A stretch of DNA of 64,000 nucleotides, from positions 942 through 64,941 of IMG/VR virus record IMGVR_UViG_3300028809_000012. One strand, 5' to 3'. Shown here piece by piece: positions 8,083 to 55,432 of this stretch. The notes beneath the pieces are model-generated. The model searched no databases and was not told the origin of the DNA. It saw only the letters and a list, made by a program, of their open reading frames with translations. Numbering within the stretch: position 1 is the stretch's first letter; each line of letters begins with the position of its first letter. Made by a program: the position numbers and the translations under genes. Source of the stretch: a virus (Duplodnaviria > Caudoviricetes).

Positions 8083-8090
8083 CGAGACAC

Positions 8091-8119
8091 TTGCGCTGAG
8101 TTATGCAGTGATGTAAGTT
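8091..8119 (+). promoter_or_regulatory. Promoter TTGCGC-N17-TAAGTT upstream of the Tas-like gene
   Basis: AT-rich intergenic; shares GATGTAAGTT with the promoter at 63350; a second TATACT at 8142. Confidence 0.5.
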
Positions 8120-8173
8120 GGTTATGTCGCAGTGCAATTTGTATACTACCAACCGGAAGCAAGGAAACCGAAG

Positions 8174-9463
8174 ATGAGCACCATCGAGAGGGAAGCGCTG
8201 AAGGAGCTGGCAAGCGGGGAGCGTACGGACGTGACGTTCTTCTCGTCGCGCCACGGAGCCGCCGTGGCCGGGAGGGACGAGGATTGGGCCGATCTGTCGG
8301 CGCGTACGTCCAATGCGCTGCGCAGCGAAGGCTTTGCCACACCCGGCGCGGCTGCGCGACTGTCGGACGAAGCGCTGCTGCTGATTCGCGGATTCGGCAA
8401 GAAGGGGCTGGAGGAACTGCGGACGTGGAGCCAGTATCCGCAGAGTAGGCATTCTGCTTTTGTTGCGGGTCTTGCCATGGAGATGGAGGAAAGGACGGCC
8501 CGTGGCGAGTTTGATCTGGATTCTTTCCCGTCCTCCGCCCCCGAGGCGCCCCCGCAGTCCGAGAACGACCGCATGCTGCGATTCCTCGCGGACGGCTATG
8601 AGCAGGCGCAGCGGAAGCGGATCGGGTGCGGCGAGCAGATTCGCGCTGTGCTTCAGGGCCGTGACGAGACGTGGGGTGAGGGGACGGAAGAGATCGCGGG
8701 AGTGGAGGAGATGCTGGGCGCCATCGCCAGCGGCGAGGAGAGCGGGCCGGTGCCGATCTTGGGTCGCATGTACCACCGGGCGTGGTCCGAGGAGCAGGAG
8801 CTTCGCAAGGAGATGGAGCGCGCGCTGAAGCATCACGTCTGCTGGCCGTGGCTGTCGCAGGTGAAGGGGATCGGTCCCACGCTCGCGTGCAAGCTGCTGG
8901 CGCGGCTGGACCCCCGGAAGGCGACCACGGTGTCCGCGTTTTGGGCGTACGCGGGCCTCGCCACGGTGCCCGGTGAGCGCTACGCCTGCGCTGCCTGCGG
9001 CATGACGCGGGACTGGCCGGTGGGGTACAACGTGACCGGCAAGCATCAGGCGCTTGGCAGCACCGCCTCGTGCACGGGCTCGCTGGTGAGGGTGGCCGGA
9101 CCGGAGGATGGCGTGCGGGCGGCCCAGCCCAAGCCGGCGCGAGGACAGAAGTCCACCTACGACGCGTACGTGAAGAAGCAGATGTACCTTGTGGGCACCG
9201 GCTTCCTGAAGGTTCCGCGGGGCAAGTACGAGCAGGTGTACCGCGCCGAGCGGGCGAAGCTGGACCGTGAGCGCGTGGGCTGGGCGGACGGGCGCAAGCA
9301 CCTGACGGCACTGCGCAAGACGGAAAAGCTGTTCCTGTCGCATCTCTGGCAGGTTTGGCGTGAAGCGCTGGGCCTGCCGGTGGGGATGCCCTACGCCATC
9401 TCCGTGCTGGGCCATTCCGAGGCGTCGTACGTGGGGCCGTGGCAGATGGTAGGGCGGGACTGA
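8174..9463 (+). CDS. Tas-like (IS110/Nop-fold) RNA-binding protein with N-terminal RNAP alpha-CTD-like domain and Zn-ribbon insert
   Basis: AAGGA RBS at 8161; LSARTSNALRSEG...LSDEALLLIRGFGKKGLEELR (alpha-CTD-like); WLSQVKGIGPTLACKLLA...SAFWAYAGL...YEQVYRAERAKL...HLTALRKTEKLFLSHLWQVWR (IS110 C-terminal/Nop-like); no DEDD RuvC; dual-repeat array directly downstream. Confidence 0.8.
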   Translation: MSTIEREALKELASGERTDVTFFSSRHGAAVAGRDEDWADLSARTSNALRSEGFATPGAAARLSDEALLLIRGFGKKGLEELRTWSQYPQSRHSAFVAGLAMEMEERTARGEFDLDSFPSSAPEAPPQSENDRMLRFLADGYEQAQRKRIGCGEQIRAVLQGRDETWGEGTEEIAGVEEMLGAIASGEESGPVPILGRMYHRAWSEEQELRKEMERALKHHVCWPWLSQVKGIGPTLACKLLARLDPRKATTVSAFWAYAGLATVPGERYACAACGMTRDWPVGYNVTGKHQALGSTASCTGSLVRVAGPEDGVRAAQPKPARGQKSTYDAYVKKQMYLVGTGFLKVPRGKYEQVYRAERAKLDRERVGWADGRKHLTALRKTEKLFLSHLWQVWREALGLPVGMPYAISVLGHSEASYVGPWQMVGRD

Positions 9464-9471
9464 GGTTGTGG

Positions 9472-9583
9472 GGCGAGCCGTTACAGACGAGTAATCCGTG
9501 CACATGAAGCGAGCCGCCGATACCAGAGTAACCCGTATGCTAAGAGCGAGCCGGTAGAGTGTAGAGTCACCCGTACGTCCTGA
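9472..9583 (+). ncRNA. TIGR-like array A (3 units)
   Basis: (a)gcgagccg-spacer-agt(a/c)a(t/c)ccg-spacer; GCGAGCCG at 9473, 9509, 9546; starts about 9 nt after the Tas-like stop. Confidence 0.8.
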
Positions 9584-9614
9584 ACGTAACCAACTGGACA
9601 TAAGGCAAAGACCG

Positions 9615-10286
9615 ATGAGCGAGATTGACGAGAGCGAGTATGTGACCGTGGCGAGCGATGAGCCTACGGTGACGACGCATTACGCGAATGGGCTCTGGTG
9701 GGCGACGCAGGGGTCGCTGGCCGCGTCTGCCGTGACCGTAGCGCAGGCGGTGCGCCGGGTGCGCTACGCCAACGGTTTCATCGGTAAGACGGCGGACGAT
9801 CTTTCCAGTGGCGGTGGAGGCGTCCCCACCACCTCCCAGCAGGGAGACGCGCGGGAGCAAGAAGAAGGGGGGTACGAGCCGGTGCTGGGCGACTCCGACA
9901 TCCCGTGCGCGCCGTGCCCGTTCTGCGGCAGCGGAGACACGGACGCGGGAGCGGCCCTTTCCGAGACGGCGGGCGGGCGTCGTCGGGTGCAGGCAGGATG
10001 CATGGACTGCGGCGCTGTCGGTCCCGAGGCGATCAGCCCGCAGTCCGCGGCCCAGAAGTGGGCTGCACTCCGCTCCTCCCCGGCGCAGGATCATGCCGAG
10101 GCGTATGCGGCGCTCGCGGCGATCCGCCAACGTCACAATGGCTACAACGCGGAGATGCGTGCGGCCATGCCCGACCTGAAGGAGCCCGCGTCTCCGGCGG
10201 AGGCGTTGGACGATTTGCTGGCGGAAGAGCGGGCGTTGGCGCTGGCGGAGGCGGATGCTATCGCGCGGGACAGGGAGGAGCGGTGA
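9615..10286 (+). CDS. Lar-like (restriction alleviation) Zn-finger-containing protein
   Basis: PCPFCGS...CMDCGAVGP...AAQKW. Confidence 0.55.
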   Translation: MSEIDESEYVTVASDEPTVTTHYANGLWWATQGSLAASAVTVAQAVRRVRYANGFIGKTADDLSSGGGGVPTTSQQGDAREQEEGGYEPVLGDSDIPCAPCPFCGSGDTDAGAALSETAGGRRRVQAGCMDCGAVGPEAISPQSAAQKWAALRSSPAQDHAEAYAALAAIRQRHNGYNAEMRAAMPDLKEPASPAEALDDLLAEERALALAEADAIARDREER

Positions 10287-25487: not shown

Positions 25488-25548
25488 TCGACCTACGGAG
25501 ATGACCTTGGCATGGTGGCACACTTCGGTGAAGGTTGACTCCAGGGCC

Positions 25549-25848
25549 ATGACTGAATCCGACTACAACAACGACCTGCGTGTCCCTCGCTGGGTGCTTG
25601 CCTTCATCCTCCCGGCCATGGGTGTGTTCGTGGCCGTGGCGCGCACCGAGTATCGCACCAACGAGAACGAGGCGGATACTCAGCGCCTCCGTACCGACAT
25701 GGAACGCGCCCTGGATGCGCAGAACGCGCTGGACCGGAATTATGAGGCCCGCTTCTCCGACATGGAGCAGCAGATCCAGTGGCTCTGCGCCCAGCGCGCC
25801 CGCGACGACCAGGAGTCCGGCCGTCAGGGCGCGGGAACCTGTCCCTGA
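25549..25848 (+). CDS. Small TM plus coiled-coil protein (lysis/holin-like?) between arrays B and C
   Basis: MTESDY...WVLAFILPAMGVFVAVA...; GC3-rich codons; layout like 35516 gene. Confidence 0.6.
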   Translation: MTESDYNNDLRVPRWVLAFILPAMGVFVAVARTEYRTNENEADTQRLRTDMERALDAQNALDRNYEARFSDMEQQIQWLCAQRARDDQESGRQGAGTCP

Positions 25849-25856
25849 CGGCCATT

Positions 25857-26084
25857 GGTGACGCTGCATGCTTCCGGTGGCCTCAACTGCTTAGACTCGC
25901 TGCCCTTCGCTGGGTGAATTGGGGTCCTACGGCTCGCTCGCTGCCTTCGGGTGACTCACTAGAATACGGCTTGTTCTGCACTCGGGTGACTACCGTTACT
26001 CAACTCGCTTAGACCATACCGGGTTGCTCGTACGTCACGGCTTGCTCTTATATGATTCGGTTGTCTTTCCACTGTCGGCTCGAC
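25857..26084 (-). ncRNA. TIGR-like array C (about 6 units)
   Basis: Edge repeats at 25893, 25930, 25967, 26001, 26038, 26076 with alternating loop repeats. Confidence 0.85.
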
Positions 26085-54837: not shown

Positions 54838-54896
54838 GGTGAAACGTACAACAGGCTACGTGGGGATTCCCCACGTAGCCTGTTGTACGTTTCACC
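54838..54896. terminator. 29-bp perfect inverted repeat between convergent units
   Basis: ggtgaaacgtacaacaggctacgtgggga-t-tccccacgtagcctgttgtacgtttcacc. Confidence 0.7.
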
Positions 54897-54900
54897 CCAA

Positions 54901-55146
54901 AGGACGTCTGTTCTGCTCCGGCTCGATTGGAGGCTTAGGTTATCTTCGGCGGCACGGCTCGTTCTTTGTCTACGGATGCCTATGGTAAAGCGACTCGCTA
55001 GAAAATTACGGATAGCTCGGTGCTTACGGCTCGCTCGTTCTCAGCGGGTGACTCCTTTCGCTCGGGCTCGCTGATACCATTCGGGTTGCTCCAGTATCTA
55101 GGCTCGCTCTGTAGCTTCGGGTGATTCTACTGTGGAGCGGCTCGTC
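54901..55146 (-). ncRNA. TIGR-like array D (7 units)
   Basis: Edge repeats at 54919, 54955, 54991, 55027, 55064, 55100, 55138 (period 36,36,36,37,36,38) with alternating loop repeats. Confidence 0.88.
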
Positions 55147-55159
55147 CGTTCTAGCCCCC

Positions 55160-55432
55160 TCAGGTTGGTTCCGCCGGCCCCTTGGTGGTTGGCGAGGTGA
55201 CCGTCATGGGCGAGCAGGTGGCGTTGCAGGTGTTCATGGGCACTGCATCGGTCCCATACCCGCAGGTCTGGTAGTGGCAGGTGTTGTATCCGTCGTCGGT
55301 GTAGTGGTTCGGGCACGTCATGCAGGTGTTCAGCCCCGACGCCGCGTGCACCGTCCCCAGCCCTTCCGGCGCCGCGCCAGCATCCATCGACTCCACCGCC
55401 AGCGCGTCCAGATGTAGCTTGTGTCTCCGCAT
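55160..55432 (-). CDS. RiPP (pinensin-like lanthipeptide) precursor-like peptide
   Basis: Leader KLHLDALAVESMD...GTVHA followed by Cys/Thr-rich core (six TC dipeptides). Confidence 0.65.
   Translation of the reverse strand: MRRHKLHLDALAVESMDAGAAPEGLGTVHAASGLNTCMTCPNHYTDDGYNTCHYQTCGYGTDAVPMNTCNATCSPMTVTSPTTKGPAEPT

Follow-up and report, generated by a model that had tools for sequence, protein, structure and literature searches.

A nuclease-free phage TIGR-Tas effector with an N-terminal alpha-CTD-like domain and 28 guide units in four arrays

The virus record IMGVR_UViG_3300028809_000012 belongs to a tailed soil phage of roughly 65 kb and contains a single copy of tas, a gene for a TIGR-associated (Tas) protein, P0001. 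P0001 lacks a nuclease domain and carries at its N-terminus a domain resembling the C-terminal domain of the RNA polymerase alpha subunit (alpha-CTD). Here, we analysed 64,000 bases of the 64,941-base record (the window; GC content 65.7%), for which completeness is estimated at 66%. The original prediction, made from the nucleotide sequence, placed a TIGR-Tas-like locus at this position. This view holds for the effector gene and for the guide array directly behind it (array A), but three further arrays (B1, B2 and C), located 16 and 45 kb from tas on the opposite strand, had been missed. The four arrays comprise 28 units, with the last two of array C and the last three of array B1 set by eye. 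The features are as follows:

8083-8173, plus strand: intergenic leader of tas, with a promoter-like site and a purine-rich ribosome-binding stretch before the ATG at 8174, both seen by eye
8174-9463, plus strand: tas gene, 429 amino acids (P0001), nuclease-free TIGR-associated protein with an N-terminal alpha-CTD-like domain
8276-8434, plus strand: alpha-CTD-like (helix-hairpin-helix)2 domain, residues 35-87, from Pfam, PDB and structure superposition
8435-8560, plus strand: hypervariable tether, residues 88-129, between the alpha-CTD-like domain and the coiled coil
8561-8839, plus strand: coiled-coil dimerisation domain, residues 130-222, modelled as two long helices (130-160 and 194-218)
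8840-9460, plus strand: Nop-type RNA-binding domain, residues 223-429, from PDB, Foldseek and NCBIfam matches
8978-9133, plus strand: Cys2-His-Cys beta insertion, residues 269-320, with C272, C275, H291 and C300 invariant in 70 relatives
9472-9591, plus strand: array A, three units (36, 37 and 38 nt), starting 9 nt after the tas stop codon
25038-25487, minus strand: array B2, 12 units with the repeats of array A, about 370 nt downstream of B1
25857-26084, minus strand: array B1, six units with the repeats of array A
54838-54896, minus strand: perfect 28-bp hairpin, starting in the last spacer and the truncated edge repeat of array C
54883-55146, minus strand: array C, seven units with the repeats of array A, directly after an open reading frame (ORF) of 90 amino acids

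Judged from its sequence, P0001 is a TIGR-Tas effector without a nuclease domain. The NCBIfam model NF052498 ('TIGR-Tas system RNA-guided endonuclease') matches residues 135-396 over its entire length (model positions 1-215 of 215) with 205.8 bits at a cut-off of 100. PDB sequence searches returned TaTasR (9mty, E = 4.8e-18) and TasH (21kl, E = 1.6e-5), the alignments spanning only residues 206-422 and 227-415, respectively. A full-length AlphaFold2 model built with 70 relatives reached a mean predicted local distance difference test score (pLDDT) of 90.9 and a predicted template-modelling score of 0.71. When the model was compared to known structures using Foldseek, the ten best chains were all TasH or TasR (E = 1.9e-8 to 3.6e-6, probability 1.00, target template-modelling score 0.57-0.71), followed further down by the IS621 and ISCro4 recombinases (E of about 1e-3) and archaeal Nop5 (E = 0.2-0.8). 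These matches bear out the Nop pattern that had been noticed in the C-terminal ~280 residues. The accompanying claim of an IS110-type C-terminus survives as a family resemblance, but not beyond: the IS110 equivalog model NF033542 reaches 31.5 bits at a cut-off of 140 and covers residues 123-265 only, and P0001 has neither the DEDD RuvC domain of a full-length IS110-family transposase nor the recombinase serine region. Likewise, Transposase_20 had been expected together with RNA_pol_A_CTD and stays just below its Pfam cut-off (21.0 versus 21.3 bits, residues 227-265), whereas the latter model exceeds its own (see below). RuvC and HNH domains, whose absence had been noted from the start, were found neither in Pfam at E up to 10 (four families listed), nor in NCBIfam (five listed), nor in the PDB.

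The central part of P0001 is predicted to form a dimer through its coiled coil. The modelled homodimer scored 0.51, compared to 0.01 for the best of three controls, with confident contacts at residues 130-213; the mark is reached by 20 of 30 solved homomers and by 1 of 23 single chains, and given that Tas dimers have already been solved, the result shows likeness and may echo those structures. Three runs shared at least 37% of the contacts, and the pLDDT of the partner was at least 73. In the Nop-type domain, Tyr407 (nt 9392-9394) and His414 (nt 9413-9415) align with Y289 and H296 of SpTasH, residues named as catalytic for the metal-independent processing of pre-tigRNA (PMC13421893). Both residues are invariant in five proteins that share the architecture of P0001, and His414 is at least 90% conserved in the 70 relatives. 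The Cys2-His-Cys insertion, which measures about 50 residues, follows the 'WAYAGL' motif at a point where TaTasR has only a short loop, with TaTasR residues 217 and 220 aligning on either side of the insertion. Probably, it binds zinc and enlarges the wedge loop that separates the strands, as a feature specific to a clade linked to Gemmatimonadota.

Several lines of evidence identify the N-terminal domain as alpha-CTD-like, as the original prediction had suggested from an alignment by eye. The Pfam model RNA_pol_A_CTD (PF03118) matches residues 40-83 with 28.7 bits and thus passes its curated cut-off of 23.8, whereas the generic HHH_5 model remains under its cut-off (21.4 versus 27 bits). When residues 31-90 were compared with the PDB at E up to 10, each of the 33 matches was an alpha chain of RNA polymerase. 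The full-length AlphaFold model folds this part of the protein into five short helices (block-mean pLDDT 79-93), which superpose on the Streptomyces alpha-CTD chain 7vpd_S with 1.2 Å over 44 columns, at 36% identity; the structural comparison that had been proposed for both domains agreed with expectation. The six sequences carrying the module agree without exception at R44, N47, G75, and 20 further columns. Alpha has the Arg and Asn at matching places in its first hairpin and the Gly-Lys in its second. In the numbering of E. coli alpha, we take R44, N47, and G75 to correspond to R265, N268, and G296, with the Gly-Lys including K297/K298, and these positions to form the DNA-contacting set. W38 is likewise invariant in six of six sequences, and the RpoA sequences aligned have no Trp there. 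Its position is presumably the one at which alpha carries the sigma-contacting acidic patch known as the '261 determinant'.

P0001 is not an alpha subunit. The rpoA equivalog models score 23.7, 17.3, and 16.5 bits on P0001 (cut-offs 277, 227.8, and 434), and the match is to the C-terminal domain (PF03118) rather than to full-length rpoA or its N-terminal assembly domain. Compared to the RpoA C-terminal domain of a Gemmatimonadales genome (L089), identity amounts to 40% over 47 residues, which marks the domain as a member of the family and not as a fresh copy of a host gene. The domain and the alpha-CTD have in common the five-helix fold, the DNA-contacting Arg, Asn, and Gly-Lys, a flexible linker and, if P0001 dimerises as predicted, two copies per complex. 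They differ in that the domain of P0001 is located at the N-terminus instead of the C-terminus and bears the invariant Trp.

The domain is conserved, whereas the tether next to it is not. Across the five other fusion proteins, identity to P0001 is 63-88% in the domain (gapless) and 60-98% in the core, compared to 11-32% (gapped) in the tether at residues 86-129. By this measure, the alpha-CTD-like domain is under purifying selection and as conserved as the core. No alignment of the tether (block-mean pLDDT 66-86) was possible with that of the relative L002, despite flanks that exceed 90% identity, and in a soil-metagenome contig from run X3, 111 other nucleotides replace 120 nucleotides (8422-8541) with the frame kept. 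At the start of the tether and within the tas ORF, a terminator-like hairpin is followed by TTTTGTTG (8440-8457), and ATG codons lie in frame at 8478 and 8484. One site of this type per 2 kb is close to the chance expectation of 0.7; the hairpin might be left over from the joining of the two parts, or offer a route to a shorter product.

The fusion is rare, amounting to five protein clusters among the matches listed. We searched 5.8 billion proteins with a word index, scored 8,000 candidates, obtained 236 with E up to 0.001, and considered the best 120 of these 236. Only five of the matches listed (P0002-P0006, 61-99% identical) cover at least 93% of P0001; the others reach a coverage of at most 76% and are mostly 300-366 amino acids long. 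Among 19 matches scanned with Pfam, PF03118 appeared at E up to 0.1 in P0002-P0006 only and passed the cut-off in two. Independent metagenome contigs span the junction of the alpha-CTD-like domain and the Tas core in frame. Homologues with the same fusion, for which a search had been proposed, were recovered: P0002-P0006 share the architecture, and the relative L002 has an array of six units next to tas. In contigs of a collection with one genome per species, all 52 loci related to the Tas core match from query residue 104 onwards and hence lack the alpha-CTD-like domain.

Outside this fusion, the nearest relatives of the N-terminal domain are alpha-CTD-like modules in proteins other than RpoA. 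Using HMMER with the 60-residue domain against 1.84 billion representative sequences, we obtained 113 matches at E up to 0.001, and the Nop domain of this Tas clade (local clade profile) was present in none of the 112 others. All 25 of the nearest non-Tas relatives that were scanned pass PF03118, 24 of them with 2-11 copies; 13 of the 25 also have a Sigma70_r4 match (E up to 0.001), and one relative is an Mrr/ResIII helicase-type protein of 1,878 amino acids. These sequences (P0123-P0146) point to a large, apparently undescribed population of proteins with 2-11 tandem alpha-CTD-like domains, often accompanied by sigma region 4 and, once each, joined to a DnaA C-terminal domain and to the Mrr/ResIII helicase. 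To our knowledge, functions have not been described for proteins with multi-copy or free-standing modules of this kind. Small single-domain proteins share the signature 'DW..LS.RT.NALR' (P0205, P0225, and L086). Apart from the relative, the best match was P0122, a protein of 177 amino acids whose domain is 70% identical and which has the same N-terminal helix and tether start, ending in a different, Cys-rich tail in place of the Tas core. From these sequences, the N-terminal module seems to move between proteins. A scan of JGI metagenome contigs with an alignment of the domain returned four loci, none of them a new Tas fusion: the relative already known, a short ORF standing on its own, a genuine rpoA gene, and a multi-copy protein next to an integrase.

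The arrays are built from two alternating repeats, termed edge and loop. As had been stated, a dual-repeat array begins about 9 nt behind tas; in array A, the edge repeat reads ARCGAGYCG and the loop repeat AGYMAYCCG, the last edge being degenerate. The motif joining edge and loop occurs six times in the window, compared to 0.10 occurrences expected from shuffled sequences. Unit lengths across the four arrays are 34 (one unit), 36 (11), 37 (12), and 38 nt (four). The published guide of TaTasR has the form AGCCA-spacer A-UGAAACCCA-spacer B-UGCG (Table S3 of PMC12045711). The TaTasR edge repeat, UGCGAGCCA, differs from the phage edge repeat at three of nine places, and its loop repeat, UGAAACCCA, is likewise close to that of the phage. 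Both phage repeats begin with A-purine and finish in YCG or CCG, so that edge and loop share their box D/box C letters: AG/AA...YCG in the phage versus UG...CCA in TaTasR. Covariation of the box letters between edge and loop has been described (PMC12045711), and the swap seen here fits this pattern. The GC content of the spacers is 47% and 50%, compared to 65.7% for the genome (binomial p = 0.005 and 0.0005). AT-richer spacers would fit promoter or foreign DNA as targets, or simply easier unwinding.

Some features around the arrays bear on their possible transcription. A scan of 9464-9900 listed no terminator between array A and the next gene (ATG at 9615), and cutting of array A would therefore sever the tas message from downstream genes. 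Upstream of B1 lies a promoter-like TTGACT-16-TAGATT (26120-26093; one found versus 0.5 expected). The gap between B1 and B2 (25488-25856) contains no recognisable repeat units, and the ORFs in it, including one of 83 amino acids, look like off-frame artefacts. In a different TasA locus, Faure et al. describe sub-arrays with a spacer of about 450 nt between them (PMC12045711). The 90-amino-acid ORF that ends just before array C (55160-55432, minus strand) is rich in Cys and His, has no family match, and is probably co-transcribed with the array. The hairpin at the end of array C has a folding energy of -56.4 kcal/mol (z = -13.2), with none of 200 shuffled sequences as stable. It is not followed by a T-run and was not listed by the terminator scan; it likely marks the end of the transcript or protects its 3' end. 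Given the distances between tas and arrays B1, B2, and C, searches confined to the neighbourhood of tas can miss most guides of a system.

The arrays turn over between strains. Phage G004, a relative, has arrays at three equivalent places, and of 22 units that could be parsed from its B and C positions, four are identical to units of the window, six have one spacer in common, and 12 have none; several G004 units are window units with single-base differences. At the tas-adjacent place, L002 has six units, the last of which is shared with the window except for one base. In a contig from run X1, 94 nt of the window are replaced by 643 nt, leaving room for about 17 more units, so that array A comprises three, six, or about 20 units across strains. 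The same repeats are kept in the four arrays and in the relative, with differing spacers.

We propose that P0001 and its arrays constitute a working TIGR-Tas system that acts as an RNA-guided DNA binder and repressor, with the extra domain gripping the DNA that flanks the target, and we assign this reading a probability of roughly 0.55. One effector gene would serve all four arrays. The protein would dimerise via its coiled coil, and Tyr407 and His414 would cleave the array transcripts within every edge repeat. If TaTasR is a valid model, cleavage would fall between ARCG and AGYCG, which would release guides of about 36 nt, such as unit 1 of array A at 9476-9511. Each guide would pair its two spacers of about 9 nt with opposite strands of an 18-bp site. 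Given that there is no nuclease domain, the expected outcome is occupancy rather than cleavage, and the bound ribonucleoprotein could form a reversible roadblock on the target DNA, silencing its transcription and perhaps its replication. Guide-directed regulation of transcription is plausible by analogy, since MbTasA and dead TasR repress reporter and chromosomal genes in E. coli in a guide-dependent and reversible manner (10.64898/2026.09.09.750476).

The alpha-CTD-like domain on its tether of about 40 residues would take the place of the nuclease in TasR and TasH, and a dimer would present two such domains. Most likely, these grip the duplex that flanks the unwound target in the manner of the alpha-CTD on UP elements, which would tighten binding or bias it towards AT-rich, promoter-like surroundings. 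We favour flank binding because the DNA-contact positions are kept and because the nearest kin of the domain are non-RpoA modules in multi-copy and in DNA-acting proteins; contact with RNA polymerase or activators appears less likely. The guides are expected to target DNA other than that of the phage, belonging to the host or to rival mobile elements.

Certain observations weigh against this interpretation. Spacer lengths are uneven (9-11 nt for spacer A and 7-11 nt for spacer B), whereas dual-repeat systems have been described as uniformly 36-nt (bioRxiv 10.64898/2026.09.09.750476), and some units may therefore be defective. DNA binding by the alpha-CTD-like domain is read from an alignment, and K77, at the position matching K298 of alpha, is replaced by Ala in one fusion protein, P0006. 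The invariant W38 hints at contact with a protein rather than with DNA. When modelled alone from six sequences, the domain gave a pLDDT of 74.5 and three long helices instead of five short ones; this model was judged too poor for a fold search and was not used. Moreover, P0008, a close relative of P0004, does not have the domain, which means that at least one lineage (or gene call) manages without it. Finally, host or rival DNA is what remains as a target once the phage itself is excluded, and the scans found none.

In these scans, spacer A of each unit was joined to spacer B in reverse complement, the geometry of Table S3 (PMC12045711), in which the target strand of TaTasR has this order. In the window outside the arrays, the 28 units had no site at up to three mismatches, compared to two sites for reversed patterns and one for the other geometry; at four mismatches, 20 sites were found versus 26 and 20 in these controls. 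The units of array A and of L002 (three plus six), read in both geometries, gave at best 13-15 matches out of 18, a result equalled by shuffled spacers. Unit 1 of array A was absent from 401 Gemmatimonadota genomes at up to one mismatch and from four records at up to two. A unit conserved between two phages matched five of 121 genomes of one order, each with two mismatches, versus one match for the reversed control; the five sites were all different, and we read them as chance. Exact scans of a viral collection with five units returned 0, 0, 1, 3, and 0 matches. All four fell in unrelated contigs of 31-53% GC and were likewise rejected.

The likeness to the alpha-CTD also allows for a natural RNA-guided activator, the bolder form of the original prediction, in which the domains contact sigma region 4, another surface of the polymerase, or an activator protein instead of DNA; P0001 would then be nature's equivalent of engineered activators. 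The Tas dimer would then park two modules at guide-chosen sites, and a guide landing just upstream of a promoter could recruit or stabilise RNA polymerase. Several features speak for such a role: the specificity of the PDB and Pfam matches for alpha-CTD, the long flexible tether, as in alpha, and the invariant W38 at the presumed 261 determinant. Through Sigma70_r4, about half of the nearest non-Tas relatives scanned (13 of 25) keep company with transcription parts, and as no polymerase or sigma gene was found among the window ORFs scanned (24 with PHROGs and 40 with Pfam), the phage would depend on the host enzyme. The AT-richer spacers point in the same direction, and dead TasR joined to activation domains activates genes in human cells (10.64898/2026.07.30.739400). 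However, the domain is too distant from the Gemmatimonadales RpoA sequence to be a recent copy of the host gene, for a similar module in a restriction/helicase-type protein DNA binding is the simpler explanation, the natural nuclease-free Tas proteins known so far repress, and the target searches gave no site near a promoter. On balance, we consider recruitment of polymerase unlikely. RNA-guided binding might also serve an end other than transcription, with the helix-hairpin-helix domain as a generic DNA clamp that helps to keep a rival phage or plasmid from replicating or partitioning, or to mark or bend DNA for a further phage enzyme. The position of tas in a replication module and the fast turnover of arrays between strains, as expected in conflicts, are consistent with this idea, and Faure et al. 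raise replication block, competition between elements, and help to integrases as roles of TasA and report TasA-ParB operons (PMC12045711). In the phage, by contrast, neither ParB nor an integrase nor another partner adjoins tas or occurs in the 40 other ORFs scanned with Pfam, and the exact matches in the viral collection were those dismissed above as chance hits in low-GC contigs. This use of the guides strikes us as rather improbable.

Two further readings were considered. The alpha-CTD-like domain could be a decoy that titrates a host factor binding to alpha-CTD, with Tas and the guides being secondary or serving for localisation. The small free-standing relatives would suit such a function, and P0122, with the same N-terminal module on a Cys-rich C-terminus, indicates that the module can act apart from Tas. 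Yet in several lineages the domain has remained fused in frame through replacement of the tether, and 28 guides with conserved repeats are maintained alongside it, which makes a decoy very unlikely. We disfavour even more clearly, as a highly improbable explanation, an inactive relic or artefact, that is, two genes joined by an assembly or frame error, or the decaying remnant of an IS110-like element. PHROGs and the source annotations do call relatives 'transposase', a terminator-like hairpin lies within the ORF, at about the frequency expected by chance, and spacer lengths are uneven. Nonetheless, five protein clusters from different sources share the architecture at 61-99% identity, independent metagenome contigs bridge the junction in frame, the score of the IS110 model is far below its cut-off with no DEDD domain present, and the repeats are conserved in four arrays and a relative that differ in their spacers.

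The proposed function as an RNA-guided repressor is best seen in relation to known Tas proteins. Similar to P0001, the TasA proteins FpTasA, PlTasA, and MbTasA consist of a coiled coil and a Nop domain, have no nuclease, and are associated with guide arrays (PMC12045711, 10.64898/2026.09.09.750476, 10.64898/2026.08.11.744272); for MbTasA, RNA-guided DNA binding and repression have been shown. P0001 differs from PlTasA, whose guides are of the stem-loop type, in having dual-repeat arrays. It also falls outside the TasA subclass, whose members are solo Nop proteins 'lacking any accessory domains' (PMC12045711), because, although nuclease-free, it has the PF03118 match and, in addition, the Cys2-His-Cys insertion. 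TaTasR (9mty) and SpTasH (9w03, 9w04, and 21kl) are the best sequence and fold matches of P0001 and have dual-repeat arrays as well, yet these proteins cut DNA with an N-terminal RuvC or HNH domain, which P0001 lacks; the alpha-CTD-like domain on its long tether stands there instead. The Nop-type RNA-binding fold is further shared with the IS110/IS621 bridge-RNA recombinases and with archaeal box C/D Nop5. Guide-directed regulators joined to pieces of the transcription machinery exist as man-made constructs, such as dCas9 fused to RNA polymerase subunits. Similarly, TIGRa combines a programmable binder, dead TasR, with activation domains (10.64898/2026.07.30.739400); it is engineered, whereas P0001 is natural.

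TIGR-Tas systems were described in 2025 with three effector forms, namely solo Nop, RuvC, and HNH (PMC12045711), and the nuclease-free forms were shown to repress transcription only in 2026 (10.64898/2026.09.09.750476). P0001 adds a fourth architecture, in which the slot of the nuclease is filled by a module of the alpha-CTD family on a free tether, in a phage with 28 guides. If the module grips DNA, it shows how a nuclease-free Tas could acquire affinity or a preference for certain sites with no need of a dead nuclease. Should it touch RNA polymerase, P0001 could become a natural template for compact bacterial activators or repressors that are free of a protospacer-adjacent motif, and it would represent the first RNA-guided system in nature to be coupled to part of the transcription machinery, with 28 guides that could switch on or re-wire host or rival promoters.

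The fusion had been thought to be undescribed, which is correct only in part. Table S1 of PMC12045711 lists P0001, the printed cell matching our sequence over 400 of 429 characters, together with a variant of 443 amino acids; the automatic labels read 'RNA polymerase alpha subunit & pfam03118' and '...pfam03118,pfam02371', and 'pfam03118' occurs four times in the file. Discussion of the fusion was absent from the searchable TIGR-Tas text, a search that did not extend to the supplements of the 2026 preprint on nuclease-free Tas repression and its TIGRSafari resource. 'Helix-hairpin' does not occur in the available main text of Faure et al. (PMC12045711), nor do 'helix-hairpin-helix', 'hhh', and 'fusion' occur in that of preprint 10.64898/2026.09.09.750476. 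The protein has thus been catalogued as Tas with its domain match on record, and its architecture, conservation, and remote arrays are undiscussed as far as these searches reach. Table S1 also contains one other Tas protein with a near-canonical alpha-CTD, at its C-terminus and on a different node of the tree (a node mentioned 59 times); this is the only such row. The gene is cut by the end of its contig and may represent a second independent fusion or an assembly chimera.

Upstream of tas, genes for a primase/helicase, an SNF2-type helicase, and a sliding clamp place it in the replication module, and the terminase, portal, and major head genes follow further along the window. The tas leader has a GC content of 46%, compared to 65.7% for the window, and is nearly unchanged in L002 (88% identical). 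Its putative promoter, seen by eye, consists of TTGGTT (8118-8123), an interval of 18 nt, and TG-TATACT (8140-8147); the -35 hexamer matches at three of six positions, and the scan for consensus promoters did not list the site. A second possible start codon, GTG at 8132, lies inside the leader upstream of the ATG and is also open. The gene behind array A (9615-10286) has a weak match to a Lar-like restriction-alleviation family (PHROG 599, E = 3.8e-7) and would share a transcript with tas and array A. Two HTH_3 proteins are encoded among the 40 further ORFs scanned; neither a PADLOC family, nor an Rfam match, nor a tRNA was identified.

A member of the Gemmatimonadota is the probable host, the sole ground for this assignment being the titles of contigs with relatives of the Tas core: 46 of the 52 loci in the one-genome-per-species collection are titled as lineages of this phylum. 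TasA relatives with 40-50% identity also occur in metagenome-assembled genomes of Gemmatimonadota (L058, L057, and L038, the last from a genome flagged as unpublished, G003). Downstream of these chromosomal genes, there is a single guide-like unit and no array (positions 3385-3465 in L058), composed of a spacer, a GAGTCACCC-type loop repeat, a second spacer, and GAGCG. In L058, the unit is enclosed by a 15-bp stem (z = -3.5), and its spacer B is nearly alike in L057. These units may be domesticated single-guide regulators.

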